In this document: one piece after another, positions 1,881 through 55,293 of the stretch
Layout of the letters: every line of letters begins with the position of its first letter
Numbering within the stretch: the stretch's first letter is position 1
Assembly: GCA_041749855.1 (NCBI GenBank)
Contig: JBGTAN010000034.1
Coordinates: forward strand, 5,457-69,456
Reading direction: 5' to 3'
DNA: 64,000 nucleotides
Origin: Bdellovibrionota bacterium
GTDB lineage: Bacteria > Bdellovibrionota > FAC87 > UBA2466
Notes under the pieces: model-generated
The model's database searches: none
The model's input: the letters and a program-made list of their open reading frames with translations, nothing else
Told to the model about the DNA's origin: nothing
Program-made: the position numbers and the translations under genes

Positions 1881-2203
1881 CTCAATTCGAATGCGCCCAT
1901 CTCAATTCTGGTCATTTGGAACACCCAGTCTCAGATTTGATTGTGGCTTCCCCCCTCATGATTCAAAAGTGAATCAATACCCCCTAAAATGCGGCTCTAA
2001 ACGTTGGCACGCGAAGTGCTTTATCAAGAGTCAGAACATTTGACTGGGAGTAAGAAAATGGGAAATGCGGTTTTGACCTTAGGATTCTTGATGGCGGGTT
2101 CGGTTTTCGCGTGCGATATGCAGATGGAAGCGTGTGGACCCATCGTCCAACCCGGGACGGTGGCTGAAACCGCGCCCTCTACTTCTTCAGGAGACTCTCA
2201 AAC

Positions 2204-2629: not shown

Positions 2630-2665
2630 TCGCGCGATTCTAGCCTGATGCAGTAAAATAGGACA

Positions 2666-4945: not shown

Positions 4946-5102
4946 TTTCCACTTTCAACGACTTCACCCGGGGGCGCTGCCGTTTCGACTGGGTGCGTTA
5001 TTTTGAATTCCGAAGGCTGAAAGACCCCCATTTGGTAAGTATCTTACCGAAAAGACACCCCTGTTGTGTAAAGATTCCGCAAGGTTGTTCCGATAGGAAA
5101 GC

Positions 5103-5810
5103 ATGAGTTCTCTGCCCATCGGTATCATTGGAATGTTTGCGATCGTGGCACTGAGCATGCTGGATGTCGAAGCACGCGTGTTCCTCAACTGGCACTCTAT
5201 CGGGCTAGTCTGGGGAGGGACGATTGCAATTCTTTTGGCCTCGTCTCCGTGGCATATCATCGCTACGCTTTGGAAAAACATGCGGGGGTTGTTTTCAACG
5301 ACCACTCAATTTGATGTCATCCACAGCAAACTCGTTGAGCTCTCCAAGGGCAGCCGCACCACAACAGGTGCGTCCCACCCGCTTATCCAGCGAGCCGCAA
5401 GTCTTTGGGAACAAGGCGTGGACCCCGAGCTATTTGAAACGCTCCTGCATCAATCGCTCGATGAAGCCAATCAGTCGTTGGAAGAAGCGGTTGCCGCATT
5501 GAGAAACCTGTCTAAGTATCCGCCCGCGCTGGGAATGACCGGAACGGTCATGGGTCTTGTCGTCATGTTTAGCAAACTCGGACCCGATCAAGCAGCAAAC
5601 ATGGGAGCGAGCCTTGCGCTTGCGATGACTGCCACTTTTTATGGTTTGATCCTTGCGAACGCGTTGATTCTCCCGCTAGCCGATCGTCTGGCTATGCAAC
5701 AGATTTCAACGACACGATCCAACGACTTCGTATTCCGCTCTCTGATACTCATTCACCGAGGCGAAGCTTCTTCTGTCATCGAGGACAAAGTTCATGCCTT
5801 CGCCGCCTAG
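5103..5810 (+). CDS. MotA/TolQ/ExbB-family proton channel protein (4 TM, MotA/PomA-like)
   Basis: 235 aa. The layout is two N-terminal TM helices, a cytoplasmic loop of about 90 aa, then two C-terminal TM helices (LGMTGTVMGLVVMF, ASLALAMTATFYGLILANALILPLADR). Confidence 0.75.
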   Translation: MSSLPIGIIGMFAIVALSMLDVEARVFLNWHSIGLVWGGTIAILLASSPWHIIATLWKNMRGLFSTTTQFDVIHSKLVELSKGSRTTTGASHPLIQRAASLWEQGVDPELFETLLHQSLDEANQSLEEAVAALRNLSKYPPALGMTGTVMGLVVMFSKLGPDQAANMGASLALAMTATFYGLILANALILPLADRLAMQQISTTRSNDFVFRSLILIHRGEASSVIEDKVHAFAA

Positions 5811-6462
5811 AACACGACGACGATTCGTTCCTACACGCAAGATTCGCGCAGAAGCGAGCGAAATGCACGGCTGGGCCGTGTCCTACTCCGATCTTCTGAT
5901 GGTGTTACTTGCGTTCTTCGTGCTGTACTTCAATTTTGGGGAAAAGAGCACGGCGAACATTCTTCGCAGCGTGGTGACGGACTTGGATAAAAGCGGACAC
6001 ACCCAAGCCGAAAGCGCAGCCGGAACGCAGGCCCCCAAACGCGGCACTGCTGCCATTCCCGATATGCGAAATGAGATGTCCCTCTCCGGATTTGTCGTCG
6101 ACAAGGCTTCTGTAAAAGGATCCATCACGGTGCACCTGCCCGACAACATCTACGGGCCCGGCGCCTACGAAGTAGGCAAAAAGCACCATGCACCGCTTAA
6201 AAAGCTACTCGAGATTCTATCTCCCTATAAGGACAGTGTGGAGTTGGTCTTCATCGGACACACGGATGCACAAGCCGTGCGCCAGGACAACCGGAAGGTA
6301 ATCGACTCCAATCTCGTGCTATCGAATTTGCGAGGTGCCCGAGCGGCCGAGTTCGCGCTTCTGCGCGGTTATAACCCTGCGTTGGTGAGTTCTGAGGGAG
6401 TAGGTCAGTTCCGTCGACAAACTAGGTCATTAAGCGTTCGTATCAATGAACGCAAAGACTAA
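5794..6462 (+). CDS. MotB-like stator protein with OmpA-type peptidoglycan-binding domain
   Basis: Basic N-terminus is followed by a TM helix with the conserved Asp (WAVSYSDLLMVLLAFFVL). C-terminal OmpA-like motif VFIGHTDAQAV. It overlaps the MotA-like gene by 17 nt. Confidence 0.75.
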   Translation: MPSPPRTRRRFVPTRKIRAEASEMHGWAVSYSDLLMVLLAFFVLYFNFGEKSTANILRSVVTDLDKSGHTQAESAAGTQAPKRGTAAIPDMRNEMSLSGFVVDKASVKGSITVHLPDNIYGPGAYEVGKKHHAPLKKLLEILSPYKDSVELVFIGHTDAQAVRQDNRKVIDSNLVLSNLRGARAAEFALLRGYNPALVSSEGVGQFRRQTRSLSVRINERKD

Positions 6463-7798
6463 AATGACAAAGCGAACCTTCATTCTGTCTACGCTGCTAC
6501 TGGTATTGGGGCAGGGCTGCTCGCAAGCACCCACAGACGATCCGGAAACTTGCCTGGCAGGGGCGACCTATCTGACCCATCTTCCCGTGGAGGCGCAGAG
6601 TGACTACCAAGGCGTCATCCCACAAGGGCTCATCGCGCCTGTGCTAGGGGATGTCTTTCCCTCTAATCGAATCTACTTTCATCCTTTTGTCGATGACGCT
6701 GGAGCTAATCCTGCCACGTTTTCTGAATTTGCAGTGACCGCCCCTGGCAACTTGGAAGTCAAAGCCGTGCGCATGCGCGAGTATGACTTGAGTGGCATTC
6801 GAGAGTACGCGATCTTTTTCAAACCCTGTTCCTCCATCCGCATTTACCTGGATCATCTTTCAAGCCTCTCGGCGGAGTTTCAAGACAAACTGAACGAGGC
6901 ACGAGAGAGTTGGAACAGCGGGGATAGTTCTGAGTGCATTCCCGGCAATGACGCTTTCTTAGGAGACTACAACGAGTGCTTGGGACGCTTTTATCGAGTA
7001 ACCGTCGACGCGCAAGACTTTCTGGGCACCGCTGGTAAATATCGCCCGCTTGCCCTGGGCGCGTACGATCAGGAAGAAGAAGTCCCCTACCTGACACCTG
7101 AGCATTACACCCAATCGCTGAGCGTCATCAGTGACACCGTTGGACTGGTGGTTTCTAGCCATAAAGTTTGGGAAGTGCTTTCCCCCACCTACCTTGACTA
7201 CAAACATGCCGCTTGCCCCCTGAACTATTATGGTCTCGATCCCACAGCGGCCTCTTTCCCCACGGTGCATTTTGTGGACCTAGCAGGAAACGCTTTTGCT
7301 GACTGGGACGGCACAAACTGCGGCACTTTCTTAGAGCAAAGCGCTGCCCGTGCTACCGGAAACTGGTTCCTCGAAGAAGTGATGGATGAAGTCCTTCAAA
7401 GCGACGGCGTGGGCTTGTTCGGAGCGGATCGCTTTGGCCTTTCACTGGCGCATGACTATGTGAACGAAAATGCCGGAGGAGACAGAGGTTATCCGGCCTT
7501 CTCATTCGGCGAAGCGATTGCCATCACGGGGGGCGGCCTCGCCGAGTTCCCCATGGGGCGGTACGATTTTGTCGTCAATAGTGCGGGAACGGTCAACCGC
7601 GATTTCAATAGCCTCATACTCAATACTGCCTATTGCTGGGAAGGTCTGACGCGGCGAGACGGCGCTTCCAGTTTCGCAGGTGCTGTCTGGCTGAAAATGA
7701 CCGACGCGCACACGCTCACTTTCCAAGCCTTTGATACGCCGGGGGATGACTGTAGTAACACCGCCCTCGATGGCTTCGCTCTCACCTTCATTCGCTAG
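6446..7798 (+). CDS. hypothetical lipoprotein (450 aa)
   Basis: Lipobox LLVLGQGCSQ. It overlaps the MotB-like gene by 17 nt. No recognisable domain. Confidence 0.5.
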   Translation: MNAKTKMTKRTFILSTLLLVLGQGCSQAPTDDPETCLAGATYLTHLPVEAQSDYQGVIPQGLIAPVLGDVFPSNRIYFHPFVDDAGANPATFSEFAVTAPGNLEVKAVRMREYDLSGIREYAIFFKPCSSIRIYLDHLSSLSAEFQDKLNEARESWNSGDSSECIPGNDAFLGDYNECLGRFYRVTVDAQDFLGTAGKYRPLALGAYDQEEEVPYLTPEHYTQSLSVISDTVGLVVSSHKVWEVLSPTYLDYKHAACPLNYYGLDPTAASFPTVHFVDLAGNAFADWDGTNCGTFLEQSAARATGNWFLEEVMDEVLQSDGVGLFGADRFGLSLAHDYVNENAGGDRGYPAFSFGEAIAITGGGLAEFPMGRYDFVVNSAGTVNRDFNSLILNTAYCWEGLTRRDGASSFAGAVWLKMTDAHTLTFQAFDTPGDDCSNTALDGFALTFIR

Positions 7799-7821
7799 CC
7801 CTGTAGTGGTACTGTTACCCC

Positions 7822-9468
7822 ATGCAAGATCCACAACAGCAGCGACCCACGCGGCTTCGTCTGGCGGTGATTGCTCTGTCTTTTGCGTGCATCGCTCTTT
7901 CAAGACAATGGTTCATTATCGCGGCAGGAGACGGCTTCGTTTACCCGACGCTCCAGCCGTCCTGGTTCGGACTTCTTCACCCACTCCTTGCCTGCGCGAT
8001 ACTTGGCACTGGAGCCTATTTGCTGCTGCTTTTTGCGCGTAACGCTCGCTCAGGAGTCTGGTTAGTCGCCACGCATTTGCTACTCGTGGTATTGCTCGTC
8101 CCTTCACTGCTCTTTCTACGTGCCAATACCAACCTTGCGGTTCACGTTCCCGCTCTTTCAAAAGCGTTCTACCAAAACCTCTTAGGTCCGACAGGATTTG
8201 CCCTATTCACCTTCGCCACTTTGGCAGCAGCGGTGGGTATCTTATGGAAGTGGCCTCTGGCTATTTCCCGCGGCATCGCCGTCGCACTCACTTTGTTCCT
8301 GCCCTTCGCCGGCTTACAGATCATTAAACTGATTTGGTATCTCCACCAATCAGACACCCTGCCGACGTCTCGGGAATTTGCTTCGGTGCCCAACCACCTT
8401 CATAAAGTAGTCGTCGTGGTTTTTGACGAGTTTGACTACGCTCTCTACCAGTCGCACCGAGCTGCGGGTGCGCGGTTTCCTCATTTGGACGCCTTGGACC
8501 GAAACGCCATCGCGTCCGACCAAGCGTATGCACCGGCGATTCACACGACTGCAACCATCCCTTCCTATTTTCTCGGCAAAAGATTGAAGAACCTCTGTCG
8601 ACTGCCCACCGACGACCTGCGTCTTACTTTCGAGGGTCAGGACAAACCCGTACTTTGGAGCGAACAACCCACTTGGGTTTCACAAAGCGCCGAAAGGCAT
8701 ATTCCGATGGGCCTTGTCGGTTGGTACCATCCTTACTGCAAACTCATGGGCAGCCATGCAAAGAGCTGTTTCGCCCTGGGTTCACCCTACATGCAGAGCC
8801 CCGCCTTCTCCGCCAAACGCGTGGGAGCCATACTCGCTTCTGCTTTTTCCCCCGGGACGCTGCCTATTTCGTACCATGCCCAAAGACATGAAATCGTGTT
8901 CAACCAAGCCAAAGGCGCTTTGGCCCGTGCTGATCTGAAACTAGTTTATCTCCACCTTTCCGTTCCGCACCTGCCGACCATTTTTGATCCAGCTACCCGT
9001 AGCGTCGTGGACGACCGCCAAGAAAATGAAGCGCAACAAAAGGTGGGGTACCTGGACAATCTCCACCTTGCCGATCAGGCGCTGGGGGAACTTATGGCAA
9101 CCAGTTCTACCCAGACCCATTGGATCGTCACATCGGATCACTCTATCCATGCTTGGCGCTGGCTTCCCAAAGACACTCCTGAGTCCCAGATTGATAGACG
9201 TATTCCGTTTTGGGTGAAGCTTGCTGAGGAATCAAAGCCTCTGCGAATTCGATTGCCGTTCAACACACTCTTGCTCAAAGATTTGAGCTTGGAGTTGGCA
9301 GAAGGCAGGATTCGTACGGGAGCCGAAGTGGAACGGTTTATTCGCGTTAATGCCTCCACGAGTCGCCATGTACTGCCTGCTCAACCTGTTGACCTGTGCC
9401 CTCACAAAGACGAGATGCACTCTTCCAGCGAAAGAGCCGATGGCAGCGAGAAGCCGCATGGCAGTTAA
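7822..9468 (+). CDS. polytopic membrane protein of the alkaline-phosphatase superfamily (sulfatase/LtaS/EptA-like)
   Basis: About five N-terminal TM helices. Catalytic-domain signatures VVVVVFDEFDY, AIHTTATIPS and WIVTSDHSIH are present. Confidence 0.55.
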   Translation: MQDPQQQRPTRLRLAVIALSFACIALSRQWFIIAAGDGFVYPTLQPSWFGLLHPLLACAILGTGAYLLLLFARNARSGVWLVATHLLLVVLLVPSLLFLRANTNLAVHVPALSKAFYQNLLGPTGFALFTFATLAAAVGILWKWPLAISRGIAVALTLFLPFAGLQIIKLIWYLHQSDTLPTSREFASVPNHLHKVVVVVFDEFDYALYQSHRAAGARFPHLDALDRNAIASDQAYAPAIHTTATIPSYFLGKRLKNLCRLPTDDLRLTFEGQDKPVLWSEQPTWVSQSAERHIPMGLVGWYHPYCKLMGSHAKSCFALGSPYMQSPAFSAKRVGAILASAFSPGTLPISYHAQRHEIVFNQAKGALARADLKLVYLHLSVPHLPTIFDPATRSVVDDRQENEAQQKVGYLDNLHLADQALGELMATSSTQTHWIVTSDHSIHAWRWLPKDTPESQIDRRIPFWVKLAEESKPLRIRLPFNTLLLKDLSLELAEGRIRTGAEVERFIRVNASTSRHVLPAQPVDLCPHKDEMHSSSERADGSEKPHGS

Positions 9469-11737
9469 GCGATGGTTGTTTAGCTTCAGTGCAATACTCA
9501 CGCTGACCGGCTTCCACGGTTGCTTGAACGACAAGGTTCACCAACAGACGCACCCGTCGACAGACGGCAAGCTCATTCGCTTTGTAGATACGCGTGCGGG
9601 AACCGGAGGGGCTCAATGGATTGCTGGACACAATACTCCCGCCGTCCAAGTCCCTTGGGGCATGGTCAAGCTAGGACCTGACACCACTTCCTTCGGCAAG
9701 GTCATGGGCCTCGGCGGCTACAGCTATAGCGATGTCAATTTGCGTGGCTTTTCACACACCCGCTTTGTGGGTGCGGGAGTCTACGGAGGCGGTGTCCTTT
9801 CCATCGTGCCAGCGAATACGCCCCTAGAGTTTGGAGCACTTCGCAAGTATCAACCGACCTTTTCCCACAGAAATGAAACCGCTGTTCCTGGCTACTACTC
9901 CGTGGCCCTCGATCGACTCGGGATTCAAGCGGAACTGACAACCACGGCGCGCGTCGGACTGCATCGTTACACGTTCACACTGAGTTCAGAACCCGTTCTG
10001 TATCTGGATCTCGGCGGCATGCTGGCTAGTGATGGAAAGAACACGGAACTATCGATCACGCTCACCGGTGGGAACAAAATCGAGGGGCACTTCTTACAAA
10101 ATGACGGCTTCTCTGGCCGTTACGGCGGACTGCACCACTATTTCGAAATGCACTTTCCGACCGGTTTCGTTTCACACCGCTACCTCACTGCTTCAGGGGC
10201 GTCGCTCACTTTGCCGGCGGGCGATCCCAAGCCGCTGTATCTTGAACTTCGGTTTGCAACAAGCGCACCGGTGGAGGTGCGCACAGCGCTTTCTTTCACA
10301 GGCGCGGCGGGAGCGGCAGCGAACTTTACTGCCGAAGCACCACTTGCCACTTCTTTCGATACCATTCAGGCAGCTACTCAAAACACGTGGGAAGCGTGGC
10401 TTGCACGCGTAGCCATCGCCACCTCACAAGAGGCCGAAGCTCAGAAGTTTTATACGGCGCTCTACAACTCCGCGCGCATGCCGACTCTTTTTGGGGACTA
10501 CGATGGAGCACTGAACGAATCCTATCGTGGTTTCGACAATGCCAATCACATCACGACGGGCTTTTCGTACTACTCCGACTTTTCCCTTTGGGACACGTTT
10601 CGAACCGTGCATCCACTTTACAATCTATTGGCCCGCACCGAGCAGCTGCACATGATCCAAAGCATGCACCGAATGGCGGAGCAGAGCGGGCGTTTTCCCC
10701 GATGGGCCGCAGGCACGGGACACACTGATTCGATGCTGGGCTTTCCGGCAGCGATCACCCTTGCTGAGAGCTACCGCAAGGGAATCACGACTTTCGATGG
10801 TGCGGGCGCCTATGCACTTTTGAAAAATCAAATGACAGCAGGTAGTGGCATCAGCGGAACGGAGTGCCTCGATTCTTACTCTGAACTGGGTTTTTGCCCC
10901 TCAGACGATGGGGGCACGACCGTCAGTCGAACACTGGAGTACAGCTGGGCCGATACCGCAATGGCAGGCTTTGCCGCGGCGCTCGGAAACTCCGCAGATG
11001 CCGACTACTTTACGTCACGGGCAGAAAACTTTCGCAATGCTTGGAGTGCCGCGGATCAGGCGTTCATTCCGCGAAAGCGTGACGGCCAGTACTTCACAGG
11101 TTGTCGCCTGGATATGCTTTCCTACTTCTCCCCGACAGGGTGTGCCAGTCACTTTACTGAAGGAAGCCCGCTTCAGCACCGTTGGGCATTGCCCACTCAG
11201 GCCGCAGCGACGAGTGCGCTTTACGCGGTCAGCGCCTTAGCGGAATTGGAAACCTTCTTCTTGCGCGCACCGAAGGGAATCGCAGCTCCGGTTCCCAACG
11301 GCTACTACTGGCACGGCAATGAACCGGCTCTGTTTGCCGCGGTCTATTTTAATCATCTGGGGCGGCCGGATCGCGCGCAGTATTGGACGGACTGGATTCG
11401 CCGAACGAAATACGACAACACGTCTGTTGGAATCGACGGGAACGATGATGGGGGAACGCTGTCCGCCTGGTTCGTGCTTGCTTCCTTGGGATTTTTACCC
11501 GGGCCAGGAACCACGACCTACGAGATTGTATCGCCTGCGTTCGAAAGTGCTTCTGTGAATTTGGGGGGAAGCACTTTACTCATCGTTGCAACCGGCGCGA
11601 CGCAGGGTAAACGCTTTGTGCGAGGCGTGACGATCAATGGCACCCCACTGACCGCACCCCGCTTTGACCATAGCTTGATTCAAGGCGGGGCTACGATGGA
11701 GTTTCAAATGGTAGAGGAGCCAGCCGCATGGCAGTAA
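9458..11737 (+). CDS. glycoside hydrolase family 92 (alpha-mannosidase-like) lipoprotein
   Basis: Signal/lipobox MAVKRWLFSFSAILTLTGFHGC. GH92-like motifs FSHTRF, HRYTF, GNEP and GNDDGGTLSAWFVLASLGFLPGPG..YEIVSPAF. The ORF extends upstream to 9350, but that part overlaps the previous gene. Confidence 0.65.
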   Translation: MAVKRWLFSFSAILTLTGFHGCLNDKVHQQTHPSTDGKLIRFVDTRAGTGGAQWIAGHNTPAVQVPWGMVKLGPDTTSFGKVMGLGGYSYSDVNLRGFSHTRFVGAGVYGGGVLSIVPANTPLEFGALRKYQPTFSHRNETAVPGYYSVALDRLGIQAELTTTARVGLHRYTFTLSSEPVLYLDLGGMLASDGKNTELSITLTGGNKIEGHFLQNDGFSGRYGGLHHYFEMHFPTGFVSHRYLTASGASLTLPAGDPKPLYLELRFATSAPVEVRTALSFTGAAGAAANFTAEAPLATSFDTIQAATQNTWEAWLARVAIATSQEAEAQKFYTALYNSARMPTLFGDYDGALNESYRGFDNANHITTGFSYYSDFSLWDTFRTVHPLYNLLARTEQLHMIQSMHRMAEQSGRFPRWAAGTGHTDSMLGFPAAITLAESYRKGITTFDGAGAYALLKNQMTAGSGISGTECLDSYSELGFCPSDDGGTTVSRTLEYSWADTAMAGFAAALGNSADADYFTSRAENFRNAWSAADQAFIPRKRDGQYFTGCRLDMLSYFSPTGCASHFTEGSPLQHRWALPTQAAATSALYAVSALAELETFFLRAPKGIAAPVPNGYYWHGNEPALFAAVYFNHLGRPDRAQYWTDWIRRTKYDNTSVGIDGNDDGGTLSAWFVLASLGFLPGPGTTTYEIVSPAFESASVNLGGSTLLIVATGATQGKRFVRGVTINGTPLTAPRFDHSLIQGGATMEFQMVEEPAAWQ

Positions 11738-12426
11738 GGCGTTTCATTTTGCTGGTGTTCGTCGTGGCCGCTTCCTGGTGTGAAGCAAGCGCCTTTAGGA
11801 CCGAGCTCCAATTTGGTTTTCCTGGTCTATTTTCGATACGATTGGACCGGCCGGTCTCCGAACGGTTGCGGGTGGGGGCAAGCTTTGGCGCTTTGCCGAT
11901 TTCCTTTGTGTTTCCCTTTTACCAACCCCAAGTCACTGGCGCAGATTTAAGTGACGAGTACGACTTGGTTTTGGAACCCACCTTGCACGCACTTTCAGCA
12001 GGCGTTTTTGTAGAATGGACGCCAGGTGCTCGCTCTTCTTTCTTTCGATTGGAACTACTGGCAAACGTGCTCGACGCTGCCGCCCACGTCGATATCTTAA
12101 ACAAAGAAACGCGCGCTCAGGCGCCTTATATGGATGTGCAAATCACTGCAACCTTGCCGCGGGTCGCTCTGACTTATGGGGGACGCCTTACCAATGGCAC
12201 CGGGATGAACTGGTACGGCGGAATCGGAGTGACGGGCCTCATCGGACAATCCGTTTTCGTGCAAACTTCGGGACCTGCTGCCGCTTACTGGAATGCGAAT
12301 CCTTCCGGTCAAGCCAGCGTCCAAGATGGAATGGATGGACTTCGAAACGAGGTCACTGCGCAGCTTACTTCCAGTTTTGCTTCAATGAGAATACTCCCCG
12401 CTGCTTGGATTTCTGCGGTTTGGTAG
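11728..12426 (+). CDS. hypothetical secreted/outer-membrane protein
   Basis: Signal peptide MAVRRFILLVFVVAASWCEASA. The ATG overlaps the GH92 stop. Confidence 0.45.
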   Translation: MAVRRFILLVFVVAASWCEASAFRTELQFGFPGLFSIRLDRPVSERLRVGASFGALPISFVFPFYQPQVTGADLSDEYDLVLEPTLHALSAGVFVEWTPGARSSFFRLELLANVLDAAAHVDILNKETRAQAPYMDVQITATLPRVALTYGGRLTNGTGMNWYGGIGVTGLIGQSVFVQTSGPAAAYWNANPSGQASVQDGMDGLRNEVTAQLTSSFASMRILPAAWISAVW

Positions 12427-12531
12427 TCAATGGTTGAGTCAGTCATTTCCTCAGGAAATGGCAATTGTTGCAGGTTATCGTCGACAGATATTTAACTCAC
12501 TGGGCGATTTTCTGATTGCCAACCCCAAGGC

Positions 12532-12552
12532 AAATACATACATATGTATTTA
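12532..12552. promoter_or_regulatory. near-perfect 21-bp palindrome aaatacatacatatgtattta immediately upstream of the HNH gene RBS
   Basis: Read directly in the sequence. It ends about 3 nt before GGAGG (12556-12560) and 14 nt before the ATG at 12567. Confidence 0.35.
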
Positions 12553-12566
12553 TCCGGAGGGCTCGC

Positions 12567-13454
12567 ATGCAAACTTCAAATTCACTTCACCAACAGGCCG
12601 TCACGCTCGCAAAAGACTACTTGAGGACCGAAGCCAAACTACTCAAGGTACTCGTAGAGATCTACAAGCGACGGTCCTATTTGCCTCTCGGGTATAGAGA
12701 CCTCTATGACTACAGTCAGCGTGCATTGAAGCTGAGCAAAGCGCAGTCCTATTATTTTTCAAAAGTTGCCGACAAATCCCAAGAGGTGCCGGCACTTCAG
12801 AAAGCTGTGGAGGCAGGTGAACTTAATATTTCTCAAGCGCGACGAATTGCACCGGTAGTCACAGTTGAAAATGTTCAGGAGTGGATTTCGAAGGCTACTT
12901 CTCTGCCTCAAAAGGATTTGGAACTTGCAGTAAAGAAGGAACACCCTGAAATGGCGGTTAGAGAGAGGGTTCGTCCCATTGCCGAGAACCGAATGGAATT
13001 GCGCTGCGGAATTTCCGCCAGCTTCGACAACGAGCTGGCGCGAATCAGGGATATTGTTTCCCAGATGAAACGCTCTCCCGCCTCCATCGAAGATGCCCTA
13101 GAGTTTATGAAGGAGGCTTTTCTAGACAGGCATGATCCTATCCGCAAGGCAGAGCGTTCAAAACAAAGGAGCACCAGGGACGAAGATACTACCCCTCCGC
13201 TTCTTCGCAGAGCGGCTCGCGTTTCTACCCCTATTCAGACTGGCAGGACCCCCATTCCCTCTGCGGTAAAGCATTCGGTCCGCTTGCGAGATGGGCAAAG
13301 GTGCGCTTTTAAATCTCTAGAAGGAATACGCTGCGAGCAATCCCGCTGGACCGAGATGCATCATCGCGTGCCCGTAAGCAGGGGCGGTCAGCACTCCCTA
13401 TCAAACATCACTACTCTGTGTTCAAAGCACCATCGCTATTTACACGGGCACTAA
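12567..13454 (+). CDS. HNH endonuclease domain protein (DUF222-like N-terminal region plus C-terminal HNH)
   Basis: The C-terminus HHRVPVSRGGQHSLSNITTLCSKHHRYLHGH is an HNH motif. RBS GGAGG lies 6 nt upstream. GC is roughly 45%, against about 55-58% in neighbouring genes. An alternative TTG start exists at 12516. Confidence 0.7.
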   Translation: MQTSNSLHQQAVTLAKDYLRTEAKLLKVLVEIYKRRSYLPLGYRDLYDYSQRALKLSKAQSYYFSKVADKSQEVPALQKAVEAGELNISQARRIAPVVTVENVQEWISKATSLPQKDLELAVKKEHPEMAVRERVRPIAENRMELRCGISASFDNELARIRDIVSQMKRSPASIEDALEFMKEAFLDRHDPIRKAERSKQRSTRDEDTTPPLLRRAARVSTPIQTGRTPIPSAVKHSVRLRDGQRCAFKSLEGIRCEQSRWTEMHHRVPVSRGGQHSLSNITTLCSKHHRYLHGH

Positions 13455-46919: not shown

Positions 46920-47019
46920 ACAAGGATACTATAGCGAACCCGGCGTTGCCCTACTTTCACCCAAATAAGTTTTGAAAAATCGAATTGAAGTGTACAAACC
47001 GCCTAATCGGGAGGCTCGT

Positions 47020-48177
47020 ATGCAAATGATTTTGACTCTGACTGCGTTACTTACTTGGTTACCGGTAGCAAATGCGGGGTGTTGGATTGTTTGGAAAGGA
47101 GCCAGCAGCCATCTGAAGTGCGATGGAGCAGGTGCAACGCCTACTTTCGAGAAGTTCAAAGATGCCATGGAGGAGATTCAGGGCCTTTCGCCTCAATGTA
47201 TCGATGCAGTCGGCCGGCTCTACGGAACTTACTTCGAATGCGGAGTTGCTGTTTACGGCGCCGTGATGTCTGAAGGCGCTCTAATTGTTGGCGCTCAACA
47301 AGCTTGCAAGCATTTTACGAAAGAGTTGAATGACGCCCAGGACAAATGCGGCGAGCGTTTGAATGTCCGAACGCAGCAAGGCGCCGTAGTTCCACCGCCC
47401 GGGCAGCCCGCTCCGCCGAAACCTACGATCATGAAAGCGTGCAATCGCACATCGAAACTGCTCCAAGTTGGCGGTGCCGAGTACAACGGATTCAACAATA
47501 CTTCAAAGGGCTGGGTCTCCCTTGCCTCAGGGCAATGTCAGGACATCATGTCGGTCAAGGCCCAGGGCTACCTTTACGCGACCGACAACCTGCTAGGCGG
47601 CAAGTTCTATAAGCCGCGGACGAATCCGCAGGGAGATGCTTTTATTTGCGTGGACCCGAAACGACATTTTCATATGCCGACTTTTATCGACAGTTCGGGC
47701 AAGTGCAAGCGCCTGGGCGCGGACGTGACTGGATTTCCGGCGAGCGTGCTAGTGAAAAGACTGGGTGTAGGTGGGGTGGAAACTTGGAACATCGTCGATG
47801 GGGACGGTTTCGAGTTGGACGGCACGGTGGTACGAATGAAGAATAACTCTCCGCTGACCCGGACCTTCTCGATGAGCTTCGCCTTTCAAACGCAACAGGG
47901 CACTAAGACCGGGATGACTCACCAGAGTAATGTTGAAACAGTGCCGAATGGGTTTGCCGACTTTTACGTCCCCACCTCAACGGGACGGATTTTGCACGAT
48001 GAAGCGGGAAACGGACTTCTGCTAGCTTCATTTCGGCTGACCCTTCAAGATGGCCAAGTACTGTTGTGGGGAGAGAATGCGAAGGGCCTTCCCTACGGAC
48101 TACCGTTCCTGGAGACGTTATTCACCAGCCCCAAAACGCATAAAGTCATTCGGCTGTACGAAGGGTCGGTGAATTAA
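47020..48177 (+). CDS. secreted hypothetical protein (Cys-containing, about 385 aa)
   Basis: GGGAGG RBS. Signal MQMILTLTALLTWLPVANA. The ORF extends upstream to 46972. Confidence 0.5.
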   Translation: MQMILTLTALLTWLPVANAGCWIVWKGASSHLKCDGAGATPTFEKFKDAMEEIQGLSPQCIDAVGRLYGTYFECGVAVYGAVMSEGALIVGAQQACKHFTKELNDAQDKCGERLNVRTQQGAVVPPPGQPAPPKPTIMKACNRTSKLLQVGGAEYNGFNNTSKGWVSLASGQCQDIMSVKAQGYLYATDNLLGGKFYKPRTNPQGDAFICVDPKRHFHMPTFIDSSGKCKRLGADVTGFPASVLVKRLGVGGVETWNIVDGDGFELDGTVVRMKNNSPLTRTFSMSFAFQTQQGTKTGMTHQSNVETVPNGFADFYVPTSTGRILHDEAGNGLLLASFRLTLQDGQVLLWGENAKGLPYGLPFLETLFTSPKTHKVIRLYEGSVN

Positions 48178-49385
48178 TGAAAAGTCTAATTTTGGTCCTC
48201 ATTTTGGGCTTCGGCACGACCGCGTTTAGCACGGAAGTCGTCAATCGAGCTCCCTTTCAGGTTTTGATTGTCTCAGGCAGGTATCTGGAGTCCGCCCATA
48301 ATCTGGGTCGGCCAGAAGGGCCCACTTACGTGTCTTCCAAAGGCTGGCTTCGGCTCAACCCGGGTGCTTCTGGAAAAATTGAGGGTAGCCATTTCGCGGC
48401 GTTTTATCGTCGCTTGGATGGCTCGCTTGCCACACTGAGACCTTCCGAGCTCAAGGAAGGTGCTCGACGCCCCATTCTGCCTGTGAATTCTGGAGGCGAT
48501 TTTCAAACTCAAACTTTTACCGTAGTCGAACCGATGGCGATTCACATGCCGGGACAGTACCGCCAGGCGGGATATCAATACACCGCGTTTGAGGACGTGA
48601 ACTCATTGCCTTGGGAGAATGGGAAGCCTGTCATTAAAGCTCCGCTCCTGGCCGATGCCGTGAGTGAGTATTGGACGTTTGGATTTTACAATCAAACAGG
48701 TGCGCCGATGTCCTACCGGATTATTCGAGACGGAGTTCCGGAACCTACTACCCAGTCGGTCGACGCCGCCCAACACCGATTCCATTGGGGCACCAGCAAC
48801 TTTCGTTACGACATCGAATTTGATGAGTCTCCGGCATTGGGCTACCAACCCAAACGCTATCGCATGGAAACGCTGAAAGTGGTGATTCGCGGCACCGAAA
48901 ATCGAACGCCGCGCTGGGAAGAATCCCGGCAATACGAATTTGTTTCGGTAGGCAATCTGTTCGACCTGAGAAAGGCGAGCCCTGGGTTGACCACGGCCCC
49001 CGCGGTAACAACCCCTGCCGTGAATCCCGGCATCGTCATGGATCCTCCACAGACTTTAGTTCGTATCGATTTGTCGGCGCGGGAACGCCGCCGAGTGGAT
49101 GTCGATGGGATGCGTATTGTACGCATTCAGGGACGATGGGCGGTAGATGCGGCCAAAGCTCCAGTGGACCCCATGAATGGACACACGGGAGACGTCGAGC
49201 TGGAAAAGTACTCAAACTACAAGCTCAACCCCTCTTACCCGTTCGGATTGCTCATGGTTTTTCGAAGCGGAAGGTGGTCGCCGCTTCGCATTGGCGACTT
49301 TGTTTCAGCTGGCGACCAAATTCAGATCAACGATTCTTCGCTGCAAGACAACGCGGGCAGCATTCAGATCGAACTGCAGCGATAG
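48177..49385 (+). CDS. secreted hypothetical protein (402 aa)
   Basis: Its start abuts the previous stop. Signal MKSLILVLILGFGTTAFS. Confidence 0.5.
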   Translation: MKSLILVLILGFGTTAFSTEVVNRAPFQVLIVSGRYLESAHNLGRPEGPTYVSSKGWLRLNPGASGKIEGSHFAAFYRRLDGSLATLRPSELKEGARRPILPVNSGGDFQTQTFTVVEPMAIHMPGQYRQAGYQYTAFEDVNSLPWENGKPVIKAPLLADAVSEYWTFGFYNQTGAPMSYRIIRDGVPEPTTQSVDAAQHRFHWGTSNFRYDIEFDESPALGYQPKRYRMETLKVVIRGTENRTPRWEESRQYEFVSVGNLFDLRKASPGLTTAPAVTTPAVNPGIVMDPPQTLVRIDLSARERRRVDVDGMRIVRIQGRWAVDAAKAPVDPMNGHTGDVELEKYSNYKLNPSYPFGLLMVFRSGRWSPLRIGDFVSAGDQIQINDSSLQDNAGSIQIELQR

Positions 49386-49399
49386 TGTAAACTTCGATA

Positions 49400-50245
49400 A
49401 TGAAAAACCTGCTGCTCGTTCTGCTTTGCTGCGCGTCTACCCGCGTTTTGGCGCCAGACTACACCCGGCTGGTGGATGATGAGCTAGAAGCCATGTGGGC
49501 CGATGCAAATAAGCATTTAACCCCTTCTGAGGTTCTTATTCGCAGCGCCAATCGGCTAGAAGGTGCATTCGACAAACTAGACGAGAGCACTAGAAAGCGC
49601 ATCATGGAGAACTGGACCCGTTTCGCACGCACTGAGACAACACAGCTACTCAAGTGGGCAAGCCCAGCGATAGTCTTGCAAGAAATCAAACAAATTGTTC
49701 CGCTTTGCATCACGCCCTTCCGGCCGAAAAACCTCGTGGGTCCCATTCTGTTCAATGAAAGAATGCCGATGCTGGATTTTCTTCATCGCCGCGGTGGTTC
49801 AGGCTTCGCCCTGACAACAGAGGCGCAGATGTTCTATGACCTGCGCATCCAGCCATCGGGGCCTTCATCCCGATATAACTCTGAGGATGCAAGCAACACT
49901 GAATTTAGGGCGTTTCTTCTCGCCAGCTACTATGAAGGGACCACAAACACACTGGCCCATGCGGCTAAGCTCTCTGGGATCACCCCTGAAAATGAACTCA
50001 TCGAATACGGAAGGTTAATTGCTGACCCCTACAAGAGGTCGCCGGAATTTAAACGCGCCCTAGAAGATCGCACGAGAGTTGTTTTCCGAGAAAACCCCGT
50101 CCTAAACCAAAAGTACAAAGCCTACGGGAGCATAGCGAACCGTCTAAAGAAGCTATTTTCTTCGGACTTGGATTTGCGCTGCAAGGTCGTCCTCGGTCAG
50201 ATCGCTCGCAAACCGCTTACACTTTTTACCGGGGAGAAGTATTAA
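49400..50245 (+). CDS. secreted hypothetical protein (281 aa)
   Basis: Signal MKNLLLVLLCCASTRVLA. Its 3' end lies inside direct repeat copy A. Confidence 0.5.
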   Translation: MKNLLLVLLCCASTRVLAPDYTRLVDDELEAMWADANKHLTPSEVLIRSANRLEGAFDKLDESTRKRIMENWTRFARTETTQLLKWASPAIVLQEIKQIVPLCITPFRPKNLVGPILFNERMPMLDFLHRRGGSGFALTTEAQMFYDLRIQPSGPSSRYNSEDASNTEFRAFLLASYYEGTTNTLAHAAKLSGITPENELIEYGRLIADPYKRSPEFKRALEDRTRVVFRENPVLNQKYKAYGSIANRLKKLFSSDLDLRCKVVLGQIARKPLTLFTGEKY

Positions 50246-50332
50246 GAGAGGTAGGGTGTGATCAAGAAGCGATCTTCAAAATTTCCTTCTTCTTAAATCG
50301 GAAGTCCTTGTTATTAGGCTTTCGAAACTTCA
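50183..50332. repeat. direct repeat copy A (about 150 bp; 73-bp perfect core at 50260-50332)
   Basis: Aligns with 53163-53309. The core shared by both copies is gatcaagaagcgatcttcaaaatttccttcttcttaaatcggaagtccttgttattaggctttcgaaacttca. Confidence 0.75.
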
Positions 50333-50376
50333 CTTTCCCTTCCTTGATCTTTCTTCGCATAGTGGACTCCTAGCGC

Positions 50377-53112
50377 CTAATCCAAAGACCCGATGTGAAT
50401 GAGTCGGGCGAGGAAACGGGCCGTGGTTAGGTTGTAGTTTCGGAACACTCCGCCGACCAAGATCTTTTTGTCGACGGTCTCGACCGCCACGTAGGGTGTT
50501 GCCCCCAGCCCAATGCCAGTCTGGGAGAAGGTCGTGTCTCGGGTTCCGTCGTCGTTGAGTCTCACCAGGTACGGCGTGGCAATGCCGTCGTAGGCGGTAA
50601 AACTTCCGCACACCAAGATCTTATTGCTGGAACTTTGAGCCAGGCTGAAAACCGAGGAATTCAGACCGGTTCCGCTAGGTAAAAAAGAGGGATCGAGGCT
50701 TCCGTCTGCATTAACCCTTGCGATCCGCGACACGGGGGTACCGTTGTACGCTGTGAAGTAGCCACCAACGACGAGCTTGCCGTCGGTTTGAATGAGCACG
50801 GAAGTCACTGAACTGTCGAGACCCGTTCCCGACTGAGTGAAGGTCGCATCGAGGCTCCCATCTGGGTTAAGCCTAGCTAGGTACGGTCTGGGGGTTCCGT
50901 TGTAGGAAACGAAATCCCCTCCCACAATGATCTTACCATCGGGCTGTGGTGCTAAGGCCTCCACCTCATCATTGAGCCCCGTGCCCACTTGAGCAAAAGT
51001 CTCATCCAACGTCCCATCTGCTTGAATCCGGGCAATACGGCGCCGAGATGTGCCGTTGTAGGAGGTGAAATATCCCCCGACCATGATTTTCCCGTCTGCT
51101 TGCAGCGAAATAGAAGAGACTTCGTCGTTCAGGCCGGTCCCGCTCTGGACAAAGCTCCCATCGAGACTTCCATCAGAGTTCAGTCTCGCCACGCGTCTTC
51201 TCGACGTCCCATTATACGCCGTGAAGGCTCCCCCGGCGATGACTTTACCGTCGACTTGTACGGCGAGGGCCCCCACAACTGCACTGAAGCCAGAACCCGC
51301 CGCGACGAAAGTCGTGTCTAGACTGCCATTCAAGTTCATCCGCGCTATGTGAGGCGATGAGGCGCCATTGTGAAGTCGAAAATGGCCTCCCAATATAGCT
51401 TTGCCATCGGGCTGAAGGGCAATATCGACGACCGCATCATCCAGTCCGGTAGCTGTCGCCCCGGGGGTGGCGATGAGAATTCCATCGGCGCTAAGCCGAG
51501 CGAGATAGGGTGCGCTGCCACCGTTGAAACTAAGAAAATAACCGCCGGCGACGACTGTGCCGTCGTTCAACGCAGCAATTGCATAAACCCAAAGACTAGC
51601 CCCCGTTCCGACAGAGAAAGAAGAATCTAGGCTACCATCTGAATTGAGCCTCGCCACGTAAGGTGCTGAGGTTCCCTCGTAGGAAGTAAACTCCCCGCCC
51701 ACTAAAATCTTGCCGTCAGCTTGGATAGACAATGACTGCGGCATGCCATCAAAACCTGTCCCTGGAACAAAGGTCGTGTCTAACGTACCGTTCGCATTGA
51801 GCCGCGCTATCTTAGGGCGTGAGGTGCCGTTATAGCCACTAAAGAAACCTCCGACGACGATCTTGCCATCGGCTTGTATCGCCAGAGCTCGAACATATCC
51901 ACTCAGTCCGCTACCTACCGGAGCAAACGAGGTATCCAGGGTTCCGTTGGAATTGAGTCGGGCGACAAAATTTCGAGCAGTGCCATTGTAGGCGGTGAAA
52001 AGCCCTCCGACGACGATCTTTCCATCGGCCTGAAGGGCTCCGGCAAAAGCGCCATGGGTAAATCCACTCCCCGACAACGCGAAAGTCGCATCGGGGCCTC
52101 CGTCGGCGTTGAGCCGTGCGGCAGAGCGTGTGTTAACACCGTTTAGCTGCCAGAAAGCACCGAGGGCCACTACCTTGCCATTTGGCTGTACTACGACGGA
52201 ATACACATCATTGTTGAATCCGGATCCCGGCAGCGCAAAATCGGTATCGAGACTTCCATCCGCGTTCAACATTGCCAGGCGTCCTCTTGTGGTGCCGTTG
52301 TAGGAAGAGAAGTTGCCACCGGCGACTACTTTTCCGCCGGGATAGGGCGCTATCGATTGAACGGTGCTGTTGAACCCCGAACCCGCCGTTGAGAAAGCAG
52401 AATCGAGTCCCCCGTCGGAATTTAGGCGCAAAATGCGCCCCCTCGCCGCATCGTCAAACGCGGTAAAGTCTCCTCCGAGGTAGATGTCGCCATTCGAATC
52501 TTGAGAAACCGCATAAACGGTATAATCAGGTCCGTTGGTTGTATCGAATGGTGCCTCCTGAACCTCGAGGGTTTGCTCCCCAGAAACGATCGCCAAAGCG
52601 CCTGAGGTTGAAGCCGTTAGCGAGGCCGGGCCTGTGGTGTCTGAACGAAGGTAAAGGACGACCTGCGAAGCCGTTGCGGCGAGGGTGAAGGTGTTTTGTT
52701 CCAGGGCGCTATCATAGGTCTGACATCCCAGCAAAGAGCTATAAAGGACGACGCCGCTCGAAGGCGACAGGGTAACGGAAGTGGAGGCGCCAGTGGCTGG
52801 GTTTCCCAGGGAATCGACGGCGCTTATAGTGATCGGGTAGCAATCGTTCTTCCGGATACTGAGCCCTTCCAATCCAGAAAGCATGAGACGGACTTCGACG
52901 CCTGCTTCGAGTGGGCAGCCACCTCGGCCAATACCGCCGCCACCAACACAAAGACCGATGCCGCAACTGGAGACCAGCAGCAAAGTCGTAATCAGCAATG
53001 GCAATTGGTAGATTTTGAGAGAATCCATGATAGACCTAAATTTTACTCCTAGATTGTGGGGCAAATATGGTGCTTTTAGATCAGTAAATTCAGTTGGATA
53101 GGCGTGATTCAA
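50377..53112 (-). CDS. delta-60 repeat domain protein (beta-propeller, about 14 tandem ~50-aa repeats), secreted
   Basis: Signal/TM N-terminus. The repeated unit GG.FT.YNGT.R..IARLN.DGSLD..F occurs about 14 times. This family (TIGR02608-type) is typical of Bdellovibrio and myxobacteria. Confidence 0.75.
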   Translation of the reverse strand: MNHAYPTEFTDLKAPYLPHNLGVKFRSIMDSLKIYQLPLLITTLLLVSSCGIGLCVGGGGIGRGGCPLEAGVEVRLMLSGLEGLSIRKNDCYPITISAVDSLGNPATGASTSVTLSPSSGVVLYSSLLGCQTYDSALEQNTFTLAATASQVVLYLRSDTTGPASLTASTSGALAIVSGEQTLEVQEAPFDTTNGPDYTVYAVSQDSNGDIYLGGDFTAFDDAARGRILRLNSDGGLDSAFSTAGSGFNSTVQSIAPYPGGKVVAGGNFSSYNGTTRGRLAMLNADGSLDTDFALPGSGFNNDVYSVVVQPNGKVVALGAFWQLNGVNTRSAARLNADGGPDATFALSGSGFTHGAFAGALQADGKIVVGGLFTAYNGTARNFVARLNSNGTLDTSFAPVGSGLSGYVRALAIQADGKIVVGGFFSGYNGTSRPKIARLNANGTLDTTFVPGTGFDGMPQSLSIQADGKILVGGEFTSYEGTSAPYVARLNSDGSLDSSFSVGTGASLWVYAIAALNDGTVVAGGYFLSFNGGSAPYLARLSADGILIATPGATATGLDDAVVDIALQPDGKAILGGHFRLHNGASSPHIARMNLNGSLDTTFVAAGSGFSAVVGALAVQVDGKVIAGGAFTAYNGTSRRRVARLNSDGSLDGSFVQSGTGLNDEVSSISLQADGKIMVGGYFTSYNGTSRRRIARIQADGTLDETFAQVGTGLNDEVEALAPQPDGKIIVGGDFVSYNGTPRPYLARLNPDGSLDATFTQSGTGLDSSVTSVLIQTDGKLVVGGYFTAYNGTPVSRIARVNADGSLDPSFLPSGTGLNSSVFSLAQSSSNKILVCGSFTAYDGIATPYLVRLNDDGTRDTTFSQTGIGLGATPYVAVETVDKKILVGGVFRNYNLTTARFLARLIHIGSLD

Positions 53113-53145
53113 GGCTCGGAATTCCGCGTCCTTGAGGCCGATTGA

Positions 53146-53223
53146 GCGAGAGTTGTCTTCCGAGAAGTCGCCCTAGGTCAGATCGCTCGCAATCCGTTTA
53201 CACACTTTACCGGGGAGAAGTAG
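53146..53223 (+). pseudogene. 3'-terminal gene fragment paralogous to the end of the 49400..50245 CDS
   Basis: It translates to ARVVFREVALGQIARNPFTHFTGEK*. The end of the 49400..50245 gene reads RCKVVLGQIARKPLTLFTGEKY*. A stop codon lies immediately upstream. Confidence 0.45.
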
Positions 53224-53309
53224 CAAGGTCGCACGAGATCAAGAAGCGATCTTCAAAATTTCCTTCTTCTTAAATCGGAAGTCCTTGTTATTAGGCTTTC
53301 GAAACTTCA
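53163..53309. repeat. direct repeat copy B (about 147 bp; 73-bp perfect core at 53237-53309)
   Basis: See copy A. Both copies are in the same orientation and 2977 bp apart. They bracket the delta-60 gene. Confidence 0.75.
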
Positions 53310-53476
53310 TCTTCTCCTGAAAAGAACTGGGATGAGTCGGTAATGTCTAAACCAATGACATTTCCTTTCGCGTCCAAACGCACAATAATTCCATTTTCAA
53401 AATAGGACTTAGCTTCAATCCCCTCTTTGAAATCTATCGATACATAATCAATGTCCGCCTGATGAACGATTTTCAT
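53291..53476 (-). CDS. DUF2283-like small protein (61 aa)
   Basis: MKIVHQADIDYVSIDFKEG...DAKGNVIGLDI matches the DUF2283 pattern (MKI.YD.E.D.L.I......DG.iiGiEI). No partner gene is adjacent. Confidence 0.5.
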   Translation of the reverse strand: MKIVHQADIDYVSIDFKEGIEAKSYFENGIIVRLDAKGNVIGLDITDSSQFFSGEDEVSKA

Positions 53477-53663
53477 TTTCTCACCTCGAAATTAACCAAA
53501 ACTGTAACCACTTCCAAAAGGTTGCCGGGCATTCGCTCTATAACGACTGCCGCACAAAGCCACAGACATTTAATTACTACCCTAACTCATAGAGAAAAAC
53601 CCACCAGGCCGGCTACGCCGGTAAAGTTTAAACTTAAATTTAGGATTAAATTTAAAGTAAGTA

Positions 53664-53740
53664 TGGGTGGGTGACGGGGTTCGAACCCGCGGCCCCCAGA
53701 GTCACAGTCTAGTGCTCTAACCAGCTGAGCTACACCCACC
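53664..53740 (-). tRNA. tRNA-His (anticodon GTG), with encoded G-1 and CCA
   Basis: The reverse complement GGTGGGTGTAGCTCAGCTGGTTAGAGCACTAGACTGTGACTCTGGGGGCCGCGGGTTCGAACCCCGTCACCCACCCA folds as a cloverleaf. The anticodon loop is CTGTGAC. T-loop TTCGAAC. Confidence 0.85.
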
Positions 53741-53878
53741 ACACTTTAGAGGCTAAGTCGCCTAAAGTGGATGCAGCCAGGCTCGCAGTCAAGCTTCAGC
53801 TTTCGACTTTCTGATTTGACATCGAGAGCCGTAGCCCATACGACTCGCCGCACAACAACCAAAACAAACGAGGTCCTT

Positions 53879-54628
53879 ATGTTTCTCCGATGTGTATTGG
53901 TGTTGGGGTGTCTCCATGGAATGGTCGGAATGGCCGACGATTCGCAAAAACAAACTGATCAACCTGTCGTTACTGCCCGATTCGGTGAGAAAGCAATGGA
54001 CTCTGGCGCGCGCCAAGTTTTCGTTTCCTCCGATACGGAACTAAAAAATGTCGAGATCAAGTCAACCGATGTCGACGAAAGCCGCTGGACCGCGCTCCCC
54101 AAAGCATCGGGTAGCGATGCGGTTTACGCAACGGAACTGTGGTTGGAAGCCCGCCCCGGACGAAAGTTCATGGTTCGCGCTGTTCTTCCTGACGGATCGC
54201 GCTTTTACAATGCCGTCGAAACCTCTGACGTCGAAGAGCCCTTCGAAGTTGCCTTCGATTCATTGGAGTCCAAAGAGAAAGTGGACGCGGAACGCAAAGC
54301 TCCGATCGTCAGTCGTCCGGCTTCGCAATCCTCTGGAAGTAGCTACCCTTCGACTGCAGGCAACAGCCCGCAAGCCGTCGCTCAGTCGCGCGCCAATGAA
54401 ATGGCACGACGCGGTCAAGGAGGCCATTTGAACGGCAACGGCGTCGTTCGAACGAGCCAGGGAACACTCTTCGAAGGCGTAGGCTGGGGCACGAGCAGTA
54501 TGCCTGGCACGTGCGTTTCCAAAGATGGAAGCGCCCCTGTTGCCGATGCAGTCGCTCGAGGTGGGAACGGGATGACGTATCGGGTTAGACTGTACCGCAC
54601 CGGTACGGTCAACCGAGGCGGCCGATAG
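53879..54628 (+). CDS. secreted hypothetical protein
   Basis: GAGG RBS. Signal MFLRCVLVLGCLHGMVGMA. The ORF extends upstream to 53771. Confidence 0.45.
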   Translation: MFLRCVLVLGCLHGMVGMADDSQKQTDQPVVTARFGEKAMDSGARQVFVSSDTELKNVEIKSTDVDESRWTALPKASGSDAVYATELWLEARPGRKFMVRAVLPDGSRFYNAVETSDVEEPFEVAFDSLESKEKVDAERKAPIVSRPASQSSGSSYPSTAGNSPQAVAQSRANEMARRGQGGHLNGNGVVRTSQGTLFEGVGWGTSSMPGTCVSKDGSAPVADAVARGGNGMTYRVRLYRTGTVNRGGR

Positions 54629-54702
54629 CGCCCTTCTCGTTTCAGTCTCTTTGATGCAGCGGAGCGGTCTGGGGAACTGCTCCGCTGTGTTAAAATTGTT
54701 AA

Positions 54703-55293
54703 ATGAAACTTTTTTCCTTATCGCTCATTCTTTTTTCTACTTCAGCCTTCGCGGGTCCGGCTCAACTAGCCGAAGCGCTCACCAAAAATCATGCGCTTCT
54801 GACTCGAATGGGCACCCCCGATCTCCAAGATGAGAAAGCCAAGAACGAGTTGAAACTTACTGTCGGACGTCAGCTCAAGACCGACGGCTCCAAACTGACG
54901 GTTCTCACCAATCCCGACAACAAAAGCGCTTGGTTCGGCGGAATAGTGATTTTTGTCGAGCCTTCCGGCAAAGCTTACTTCGTCGACAAAACGGGCAAGT
55001 TTTTCACCGAGCACCTAAAAGATCGAGTGATCGGCGGAACGCTGTCACGTGATGCCTCAGGGAGCGCTTTGCTCACCTTGTTCTACGGAGCGCCAGGGAG
55101 TCCGGAGTTCTACACCGCCTATTTGGGAACGACGAAACTCAAAGTGATTCAGTTCAATTTAGATCGGGAAACGGGCAACATAGAAGGCAATGTGAAGCTT
55201 CCCACCGGTCGTGTGCTAAAGATCACGCGCATCGGCAGGGACAACGCTGCTGTAAAGGTGAACAACCTCCCTTTGAACCCGCTCTTTCTTTAA
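54703..55293 (+). CDS. secreted hypothetical protein
   Basis: Signal MKLFSLSLILFSTSAFA. Confidence 0.45.
   Translation: MKLFSLSLILFSTSAFAGPAQLAEALTKNHALLTRMGTPDLQDEKAKNELKLTVGRQLKTDGSKLTVLTNPDNKSAWFGGIVIFVEPSGKAYFVDKTGKFFTEHLKDRVIGGTLSRDASGSALLTLFYGAPGSPEFYTAYLGTTKLKVIQFNLDRETGNIEGNVKLPTGRVLKITRIGRDNAAVKVNNLPLNPLFL

Follow-up and report, generated by a model that had tools for sequence, protein, structure and literature searches.

The delta-60 repeat lipoprotein gene of a 64-kb stretch from a Bdellovibrionota contig (the window, hereafter) lies between two copies of a duplicated chromosomal segment, and the locus is probably the scar of a single insertion event, with Campbell-type single-crossover integration as the favoured mechanism. 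The inserted unique segment (~50370-53116, 2.75 kb) holds one gene only, the complete delta-60 gene, and the segment that flanks it is made of the 3′ ends of two convergent genes: (i) gene X (49400-50245, plus strand), an intact open reading frame (ORF) for a secreted-looking near-orphan protein of 281 aa, and (ii) an antitoxin-like gene of the DUF2283-HTH_17 family on the minus strand. In its reconstructed ancestral form, the duplicated segment measures ~327 nucleotides (nt), of which 203 nt are the end of X and 108 nt the end of the DUF2283-HTH_17 gene, with a 16-nt spacer between them. Its two copies, A (50043-50369) and B (53117-53313), keep the same order and the same orientation. As is characteristic of Campbell-type integration, same-orientation copies of one contiguous segment thus flank the insert, and each of them joins resident sequence to a truncated duplicate. 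Copy A consists of the live X and a dead 35-codon HTH fragment, and copy B of a dead X stub (X′) and the DUF2283 gene onward.

Anatomy of the flanking repeat

The first-pass annotation had described two same-orientation repeats of 147-150 bp, ~85-90% identical overall and with a 73-bp identical core, and had derived them from the 3′ end of the neighbouring gene. The pair itself is confirmed. BLASTN aligns 50186-50338 with 53167-53317 at 87.7% identity over 155 nt (E 2e-45), the 73-nt core (50260-50332 in copy A, 53237-53309 in copy B) has 0 mismatches and is matched twice in the window where shuffles predict 0 matches, and the window has no other direct repeat of 40 nt or more. The repeat is real but longer than described: gapped alignment extends the homology leftward to 50043 (50043-50337 against 53117-53314, with copy B short of 93 nt, in frame), and on the right copy A stays recognisable coding sequence up to 50369. 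The proposed derivation holds for one half only, as the repeat is composite; X contributes its 3′ end as the diverged left half, whereas the perfect core is not X-derived and comes from the DUF2283-HTH_17 gene.

The left arm of copy A (50043-50245, plus strand), delimited by gapped alignment and codon comparison, is the part of X whose duplicate forms the stub in copy B. As had been proposed, this arm contains the true C-terminus of X, which reads ...VVLGQIARKPLTLFTGEKY up to the stop codon. Alignments and translation identify the X′ stub at 53117-53223 (plus strand), and the claim that copy B carries a truncated, diverged duplicate after a stop is likewise correct; its translation reads ...EFRVLEAD, a stop, ARVVFREVALGQIARNPFTHFTGEK, and a further stop. 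X′ differs from X at 16 of 108 aligned bases, lacks 31 codons through a 93-nt in-frame deletion equivalent to 50093-50185, and is interrupted by an internal TGA and a premature TAG. Nine of the 16 differences fall at third codon positions, a mild excess (P 0.05).

The two parts of the repeat have diverged unequally, with 0 mismatches in 73 positions of the core against 16 in 108 of the X part (Fisher P 2e-4), and this contrast argues against one duplication with uniform decay. Between the convergent stops, copy A has a 16-nt spacer (50246-50261) that aligns poorly with the 15-nt spacer of copy B (53224-53238). The latter contains the 10-mer TCGCACGAGA, which, with both strands counted, has only two sites in the window: one inside X, at 50068 and early in the duplicated part, and one at 53229, in the spacer directly left of core B. 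The recurrence could be a short templated patch or chance.

An RNA or terminator role of the core was considered and rejected. The folding energies of the repeat are no different from those of shuffles (z −1.6 to +0.25), a simple scan finds no terminator at the junction, and no Rfam family other than the tRNA is matched. REP-like dispersed repeats occur at many unrelated loci; the core has two copies in 64 kb, and its sequence is coding-derived. Scans with 26 nt of the core gave 0 exact matches in the GTDB species representatives, the JGI metagenomes, and IMG/VR, none of which contains the source genome.

The toxin-antitoxin-type module and the insert

The core belongs to the gene that is annotated in the window as a 61-aa "DUF2283" ORF (53291-53476, minus strand). 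This ORF matches PF10049 with 24.8 bits (cutoff 23), in agreement with its first assignment to DUF2283. A homologue search with it returns 68 other protein clusters, nearly all of 104-105 aa, the best being 81-88% identical. The full-length architecture of the family is an N-terminal DUF2283 domain followed by a C-terminal HTH_17 domain; the window ORF corresponds to the N-terminal domain of this 105-aa family and ends after DUF2283. Read on the minus strand in the other frame, the core encodes (K)FRKPNNKDFRFKKKEILKIAS and a stop codon, which is the C-terminus of the family (the homologue P0125 reads KYRKPNNKDFRFKKRDILKMAS). Comparison with the closest intact gene, at locus L087, shows that nt 164-243 are missing from the window gene, and this 80-nt frameshifting deletion accounts for the short 61-aa ORF. 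On its left the core extends 2 nt beyond the ancestral stop codon, and on its right it stops at the end-point of the 80-nt deletion; the 73 nt are all of the HTH gene that both copies still have in common.

In copy A, translation and tblastn reveal the dead 3′ fragment of the antitoxin-like gene at 50262-50369 (minus strand), which reads ESTMRRKIKEGKVKFRKPNNKDFRFKKKEILKIAS up to its stop. It matches residues 71-105 of P0125 at 86% identity (tblastn, E 7e-17), has a weak HTH_17 match, and spans 35 codons, with 7 nt separating it from the delta-60 stop. The 44 nt that separate this stop from core A are HTH_17 coding sequence, and a reading of them as unique insert sequence was rejected. In copy B, the 3′ remnant of the HTH_17 coding region (53239-53313, minus strand) reads (M)KFRKPNNKDFRFKKKEILKIAS and a stop, is 79% identical to residues 82-105 of P0125, and is out of frame with the upstream ORF because of the 80-nt deletion. 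Similar short motifs, GAAGATGAAG and GAAAGTGAAG, stand at the two ends of the deletion (53310-53322 and 50333-50344), which suggests that it may have been slipped or microhomology-mediated. The similarity of these motifs also explains the few matching bases to the right of the core. The idea that both copies have the same deletion junction was rejected.

Upstream of the DUF2283 ORF are the last 28 codons of a DUF4258 gene, which is toxin-like and of the RelE/ParE superfamily (53476-53559, minus strand; 64% identity, E 2e-11). The remnant overlaps the DUF2283 start by ATGA, the same as in intact modules, and its 5′ part is missing. In other genomes (L087-L092) a DUF4258 gene precedes the 105-aa gene, and the two overlap by 4 nt. 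DUF4258 (PF14076) is among the RelE/ParE-superfamily type II toxin families, with activity unknown (PMC11980606). Because both genes are truncated, the low-GC block between the repeat and tRNA-His appears to be a decayed member of this toxin-antitoxin type (the module at 53239-53559, minus strand), and the annotated 61-aa protein is predicted to be the truncated product of a broken antitoxin-like gene. The composition of the 61-aa ORF is atypical, with a GC content of 0.382 and a third-position GC content (GC3) of 0.387 against 0.534 and 0.580 for the window. The closest intact module homologue (L087 10001-10452, GCA_043767805.1) ends 58 nt from a tRNA-Val gene and has a BrnT-type toxin gene and other small modules in its vicinity, which suggests that toxin-antitoxin modules of this kind gather near tRNA genes.

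The insert carries the delta-60 repeat lipoprotein gene (50377-53028, minus strand; 883 aa), whose identity in the first-pass annotation is upheld by multiple repeats of ~52-60 aa above the curated cutoff: TIGR02608 finds 12 (E 2e-121, 395.7 bits against a cutoff of 76.5) and PF17164 finds 13 (E 1e-175, 569.8 bits). Database entry P0004 has exactly the same 883 residues. The gene is complete, since the lipoprotein signal of the family (lipobox ...LLVSSC) and its conserved C-terminus (...ARLIHIGSLD, against ...ARLTYIGTLD in 16 full-length homologues) are both present. Its stop codon lies 7 nt from the HTH fragment, and on the other side it is preceded by an 88-nt upstream region of unique sequence (53029-53116, minus strand; GC 0.386) that presumably holds the promoter. 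A foreign origin by composition was rejected, as the GC content (0.552), the GC3 (0.577), and the codon usage of the gene are all typical of the window.

The closest full-length delta-60 relatives are 45-54% identical and reside in unrelated contexts. No flanking repeats were found around five homologous genes (one each at L001 and L086, three at L083), which makes the event here single and local rather than typical of the delta-60 family; a family-wide delta-60 cassette was rejected for the same reason. No second delta-60 gene is present in the window. The L083 locus (2066-12740), on a 14-kb metagenomic contig, has three delta-60 paralogs with unrelated housekeeping genes between them. A distinct delta-60 lipoprotein subfamily of ~870-900 aa is seen there and among the proteins P0007-P0111, in which the lipobox region ...SGCGIGLCVG at the N-terminus and the C-terminal ending ...YLARLTYIGTLD are conserved.

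Gene X is the last member of an apparent operon (46972-50245, plus strand) of secreted-looking products, namely p401 (DUF1036), p402, and X, with overlaps or 14-nt spacing. X matches no Pfam or NCBIfam family, and a word-index search returned X alone, a singleton in a collection of 15 billion proteins. An exhaustive HMMER search of 1.84 billion representatives gave a single relative, P0124, with 30% identity and the C-terminal motif RCKVxLGxxAR in common; its locus (L082) has nothing else in common with the window.

The tRNA-His gene (GTG anticodon; 53665-53739, minus strand) is 190 nt beyond the DUF2283 ORF, so that the locus is indeed next to a tRNA, as first noted. The collections searched contain no close relative. 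The best one, and the sole useful one found, was reached via the ManC neighbour (56% identity) and is a Pseudobdellovibrionaceae metagenome-assembled genome (MAG; L002). The two are collinear only rightward of tRNA-His (SPOR, cupin, ManC, Lnt, Lgt, and on to 64 kb) and have nothing in common to its left, the tRNA being the synteny breakpoint (L002 8605-8681). tRNA-His marks a variable region. Two orphan genes between tRNA-His and the SPOR gene (53771-55293) are missing from the MAG.

Origin of the locus

The search for mobile-element features was negative. Among the large window ORFs scanned against Pfam there are no integrase, transposase, or recombinase domains, and no integron integrase near the insert; of nuclease or mobile-element-like domains, the window showed a single one, the C-terminal HNH endonuclease domain of a 312-aa protein (12516-13454, plus strand), 37 kb from the repeat. 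The insert has no terminal inverted repeats (the best inverted match between its ends is 12 nt, E 0.6) and no attC-like inverted repeats at its boundaries. A tRNA-derived direct repeat is likewise missing, as 20 nt from close to the 3′ end of tRNA-His occur once in the window, even at 3 mismatches. A plasmid or phage origin was rejected after blastn in distant mode returned no match. None of the features that would point to another mechanism (a recombinase or transposase, terminal inverted repeats, a repeat derived from the tRNA) was thus found, and a Campbell-type crossover is the simplest single process that gives such a topology.

From the anatomy, which is observed directly, we infer an ancestral state, a circular intermediate, and an order of events. 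X and the antitoxin-like gene of a DUF4258/DUF2283-HTH_17 module would have stood tail to tail, 16 nt apart, adjoining tRNA-His. The incoming segment of ~2.75 kb would have brought the complete delta-60 gene and 88 nt upstream only, as part of a ~3.07-kb circular DNA with a copy of the junction, and one homologous crossover, within the end of the HTH gene, would have integrated it. Later decay would then have introduced the 93-nt deletion and the point changes in the X stub, the 80-nt frameshifting deletion in the antitoxin gene, and the loss of the 5′ part of the toxin gene. Recombination between the two cores would release a circle of 2,977 bp and re-create the junction of X with DUF2283.

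Because the core is perfectly identical beside ~15% divergence, two readings of the locus remain: either the crossover or a later gene conversion took place in the core, or the junction came from a diverged relative with an identical toxin-antitoxin gene. The third-position bias of the X/X′ differences may lean slightly toward the latter.

Several points weigh against integration by a single crossover. X, p402, and the 61-aa ORF are singletons, all from one 102-kb NCBI contig, and synteny with the closest relative is confined to the right side of tRNA-His. The model gives no account of how a circle with the junction already on it arose. The delta-60 gene has no foreign composition that would point to a source. 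The third-position excess hints that X′ may have been a working gene for a time, and this would fit a more complex history, for instance two related segments that were joined and later trimmed. In addition, an in-situ duplicative insertion with gene conversion gives the same final structure.

Such an in-situ origin, though unlikely, is the strongest of the alternatives. A single complex event of repair or replication, for instance template switching or the fill-in of a long staggered break, would have copied the delta-60 gene from elsewhere in the same genome and duplicated ~327 nt of target, after which the stub would have decayed neutrally while gene conversion homogenised the HTH segment. 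The native composition and codon use of the delta-60 gene agree with it, as do the multi-copy state of the family in related organisms (three paralogs in 14 kb at L083), the tight joins that lack mobile-element features, and the X-derived 10-mer at the copy B spacer if this is a templated patch. However, the extra gene-conversion step is needed to account for 0/73 against 16/108, the window has no second delta-60 gene as a source, and the duplication of a target over hundreds of bases is not known as a usual outcome in bacteria.

Less probable still is a history in which two related segments, both next to a tRNA, were joined in tandem, each with a toxin-antitoxin module followed by an X-type gene. 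Deletions would have removed most of the inner X′ together with its upstream genes and most of the outer module, and the delta-60 gene would derive from one of the segments. At least two large and precisely placed deletions are required, and the perfect core would still be unexplained; moreover, the tRNA-derived direct repeat and the integrase (among the large ORFs scanned) that mark tRNA-targeting islands are both lacking. In its favour are the synteny breakpoint at tRNA-His with everything leftward lineage-specific, the enrichment of X/X′ differences at third codon positions, and the fact that toxin-antitoxin modules are typical island cargo, the L087 module lying 58 nt from tRNA-Val.

A bolder version of the single-crossover model, which we regard as improbable, takes the 3-kb unit as a recombinase-free "hitch-hiking" cassette that travels between related lineages as a circle and lands, by homologous recombination, in the 3′ end of a toxin-antitoxin gene, a sequence both highly conserved and shared horizontally. 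If true, widespread toxin-antitoxin genes would offer delta-60 lipoprotein genes and similar cargo a portable landing pad, and it would be explained why the identity ends 2 nt past the toxin-antitoxin stop with the host-gene part ~15% diverged.

That the core is instead an att-like site, through which a recombinase encoded elsewhere moves the 3-kb unit as a non-autonomous site-specific element, is very unlikely. Such a unit would resemble a cis-mobilisable element or a gene cassette, and it shares with them one complete gene, minimal flanks, identical direct repeats, and a tRNA beside it. Yet the core is nothing more than 3′ coding sequence of a toxin-antitoxin gene, with no significant secondary structure, inverted symmetry, or Rfam match; its 26-nt piece has no exact match in the genome, metagenome, and viral collections; and other delta-60 genes lack such repeats. 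The homology runs well past the core into X, which indicates general rather than site-specific recombination. One source labels full-length homologues of the antitoxin-like protein "excisionase family DNA binding protein", but this label reflects the generic HTH_17 domain only. An assembly artefact, in which an uninterrupted X/DUF2283 chromosome and a separate 2,977-bp circle or second strain were threaded via the 73-mer, is equally implausible: although the integrated form and the empty-site-plus-circle form have the same k-mers for k <73 and the source is a 102-kb draft contig whose protein clusters are singletons, the repeat would be resolved by reads >73 nt or a usual final k ≥77, the two copies have clearly different flanks, and even then the junction-bearing circle would be real and the biology the same except for the integration state.

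Integration of the delta-60 gene by a single crossover stays the favoured account, and the earlier interpretation is partly supported. The two repeats mark an event by which the delta-60 gene came to lie between two resident genes, each copy of the repeat being an intact gene end plus a dead stub. The suggestion that the DUF2283 gene was possibly brought in with the insert does not stand, because its own 3′ end forms the core and the 35-codon fragment in copy A, which makes it the resident target. "Recently rearranged" is doubtful in view of the 16/108 differences, the 93-nt deletion, and the two stop codons of the X stub; only the 73-nt core looks recent. "Cassette-like" applies to the size and to nothing else, as no recombinase, att, attC, or terminal inverted repeat was found. 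The locus is an ordinary rearrangement scar, not a new kind of mobile element. It offers a clean, dissectable case of a gene added between convergent genes with neither broken and with the erosion of the scar visible, and its value lies in the annotation of this genome and in a worked case of rearrangement forensics. Wider weight would come only if the unit can excise or if toxin-antitoxin gene ends are recurrent landing sites, neither of which is shown here.

Comparison with known systems

Insertion sequences, transposons, and miniature inverted-repeat transposable elements are recognised by terminal inverted repeats and short target-site duplications. The locus resembles them in the direct duplication of target on both sides of the insert, but the duplication measures ~200-330 nt against typically 2-14 nt, and there are no terminal inverted repeats and no transposase. 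Integron gene cassettes are likewise single-gene units with very little non-coding flank. They are defined by an attC hairpin and by an integrase and attI nearby, whereas here there is no attC-like imperfect palindrome, intI, attI, or array; the gene has its own 88-nt upstream region, and the flanking repeats copy neighbouring genes.

Islands that target tRNA genes bear repeats of the tRNA 3′ end and a tyrosine or serine integrase at one end; neither was found here, the integrase having been sought among the large window ORFs. Cis-mobilisable elements and satellite islands are flanked by att sites and have no integrase of their own. The insert is similar to these in being a short segment with identical direct repeats, no recombination genes, and a tRNA beside it. 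It differs in that its repeats are not tRNA- or att-derived, the homology extends far beyond the identical core, and no cognate integrase or related autonomous element is seen here.

The resident target agrees with intact DUF4258/DUF2283-HTH_17 modules in its two genes, their order, the ATGA overlap, and 64-88% protein identity. Unlike in those modules, both genes are broken here and a second fragment of the antitoxin end lies 3 kb away.

In Campbell-type integration, a circular DNA, for example a suicide plasmid, enters by a single homologous crossover. The locus departs from this scheme in that the insert is one chromosomal-type gene with no plasmid backbone, replication gene, or other cargo, the homology copies are unequal (0% and ~15% divergence), and the circular intermediate is hypothetical. 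It agrees with the scheme in the position of the insert between direct repeats of a homologous segment, recombination of which would reverse the event. Since that homologous segment spans two convergent gene ends, both resident genes were left intact by the insertion, with one dead stub in each repeat.

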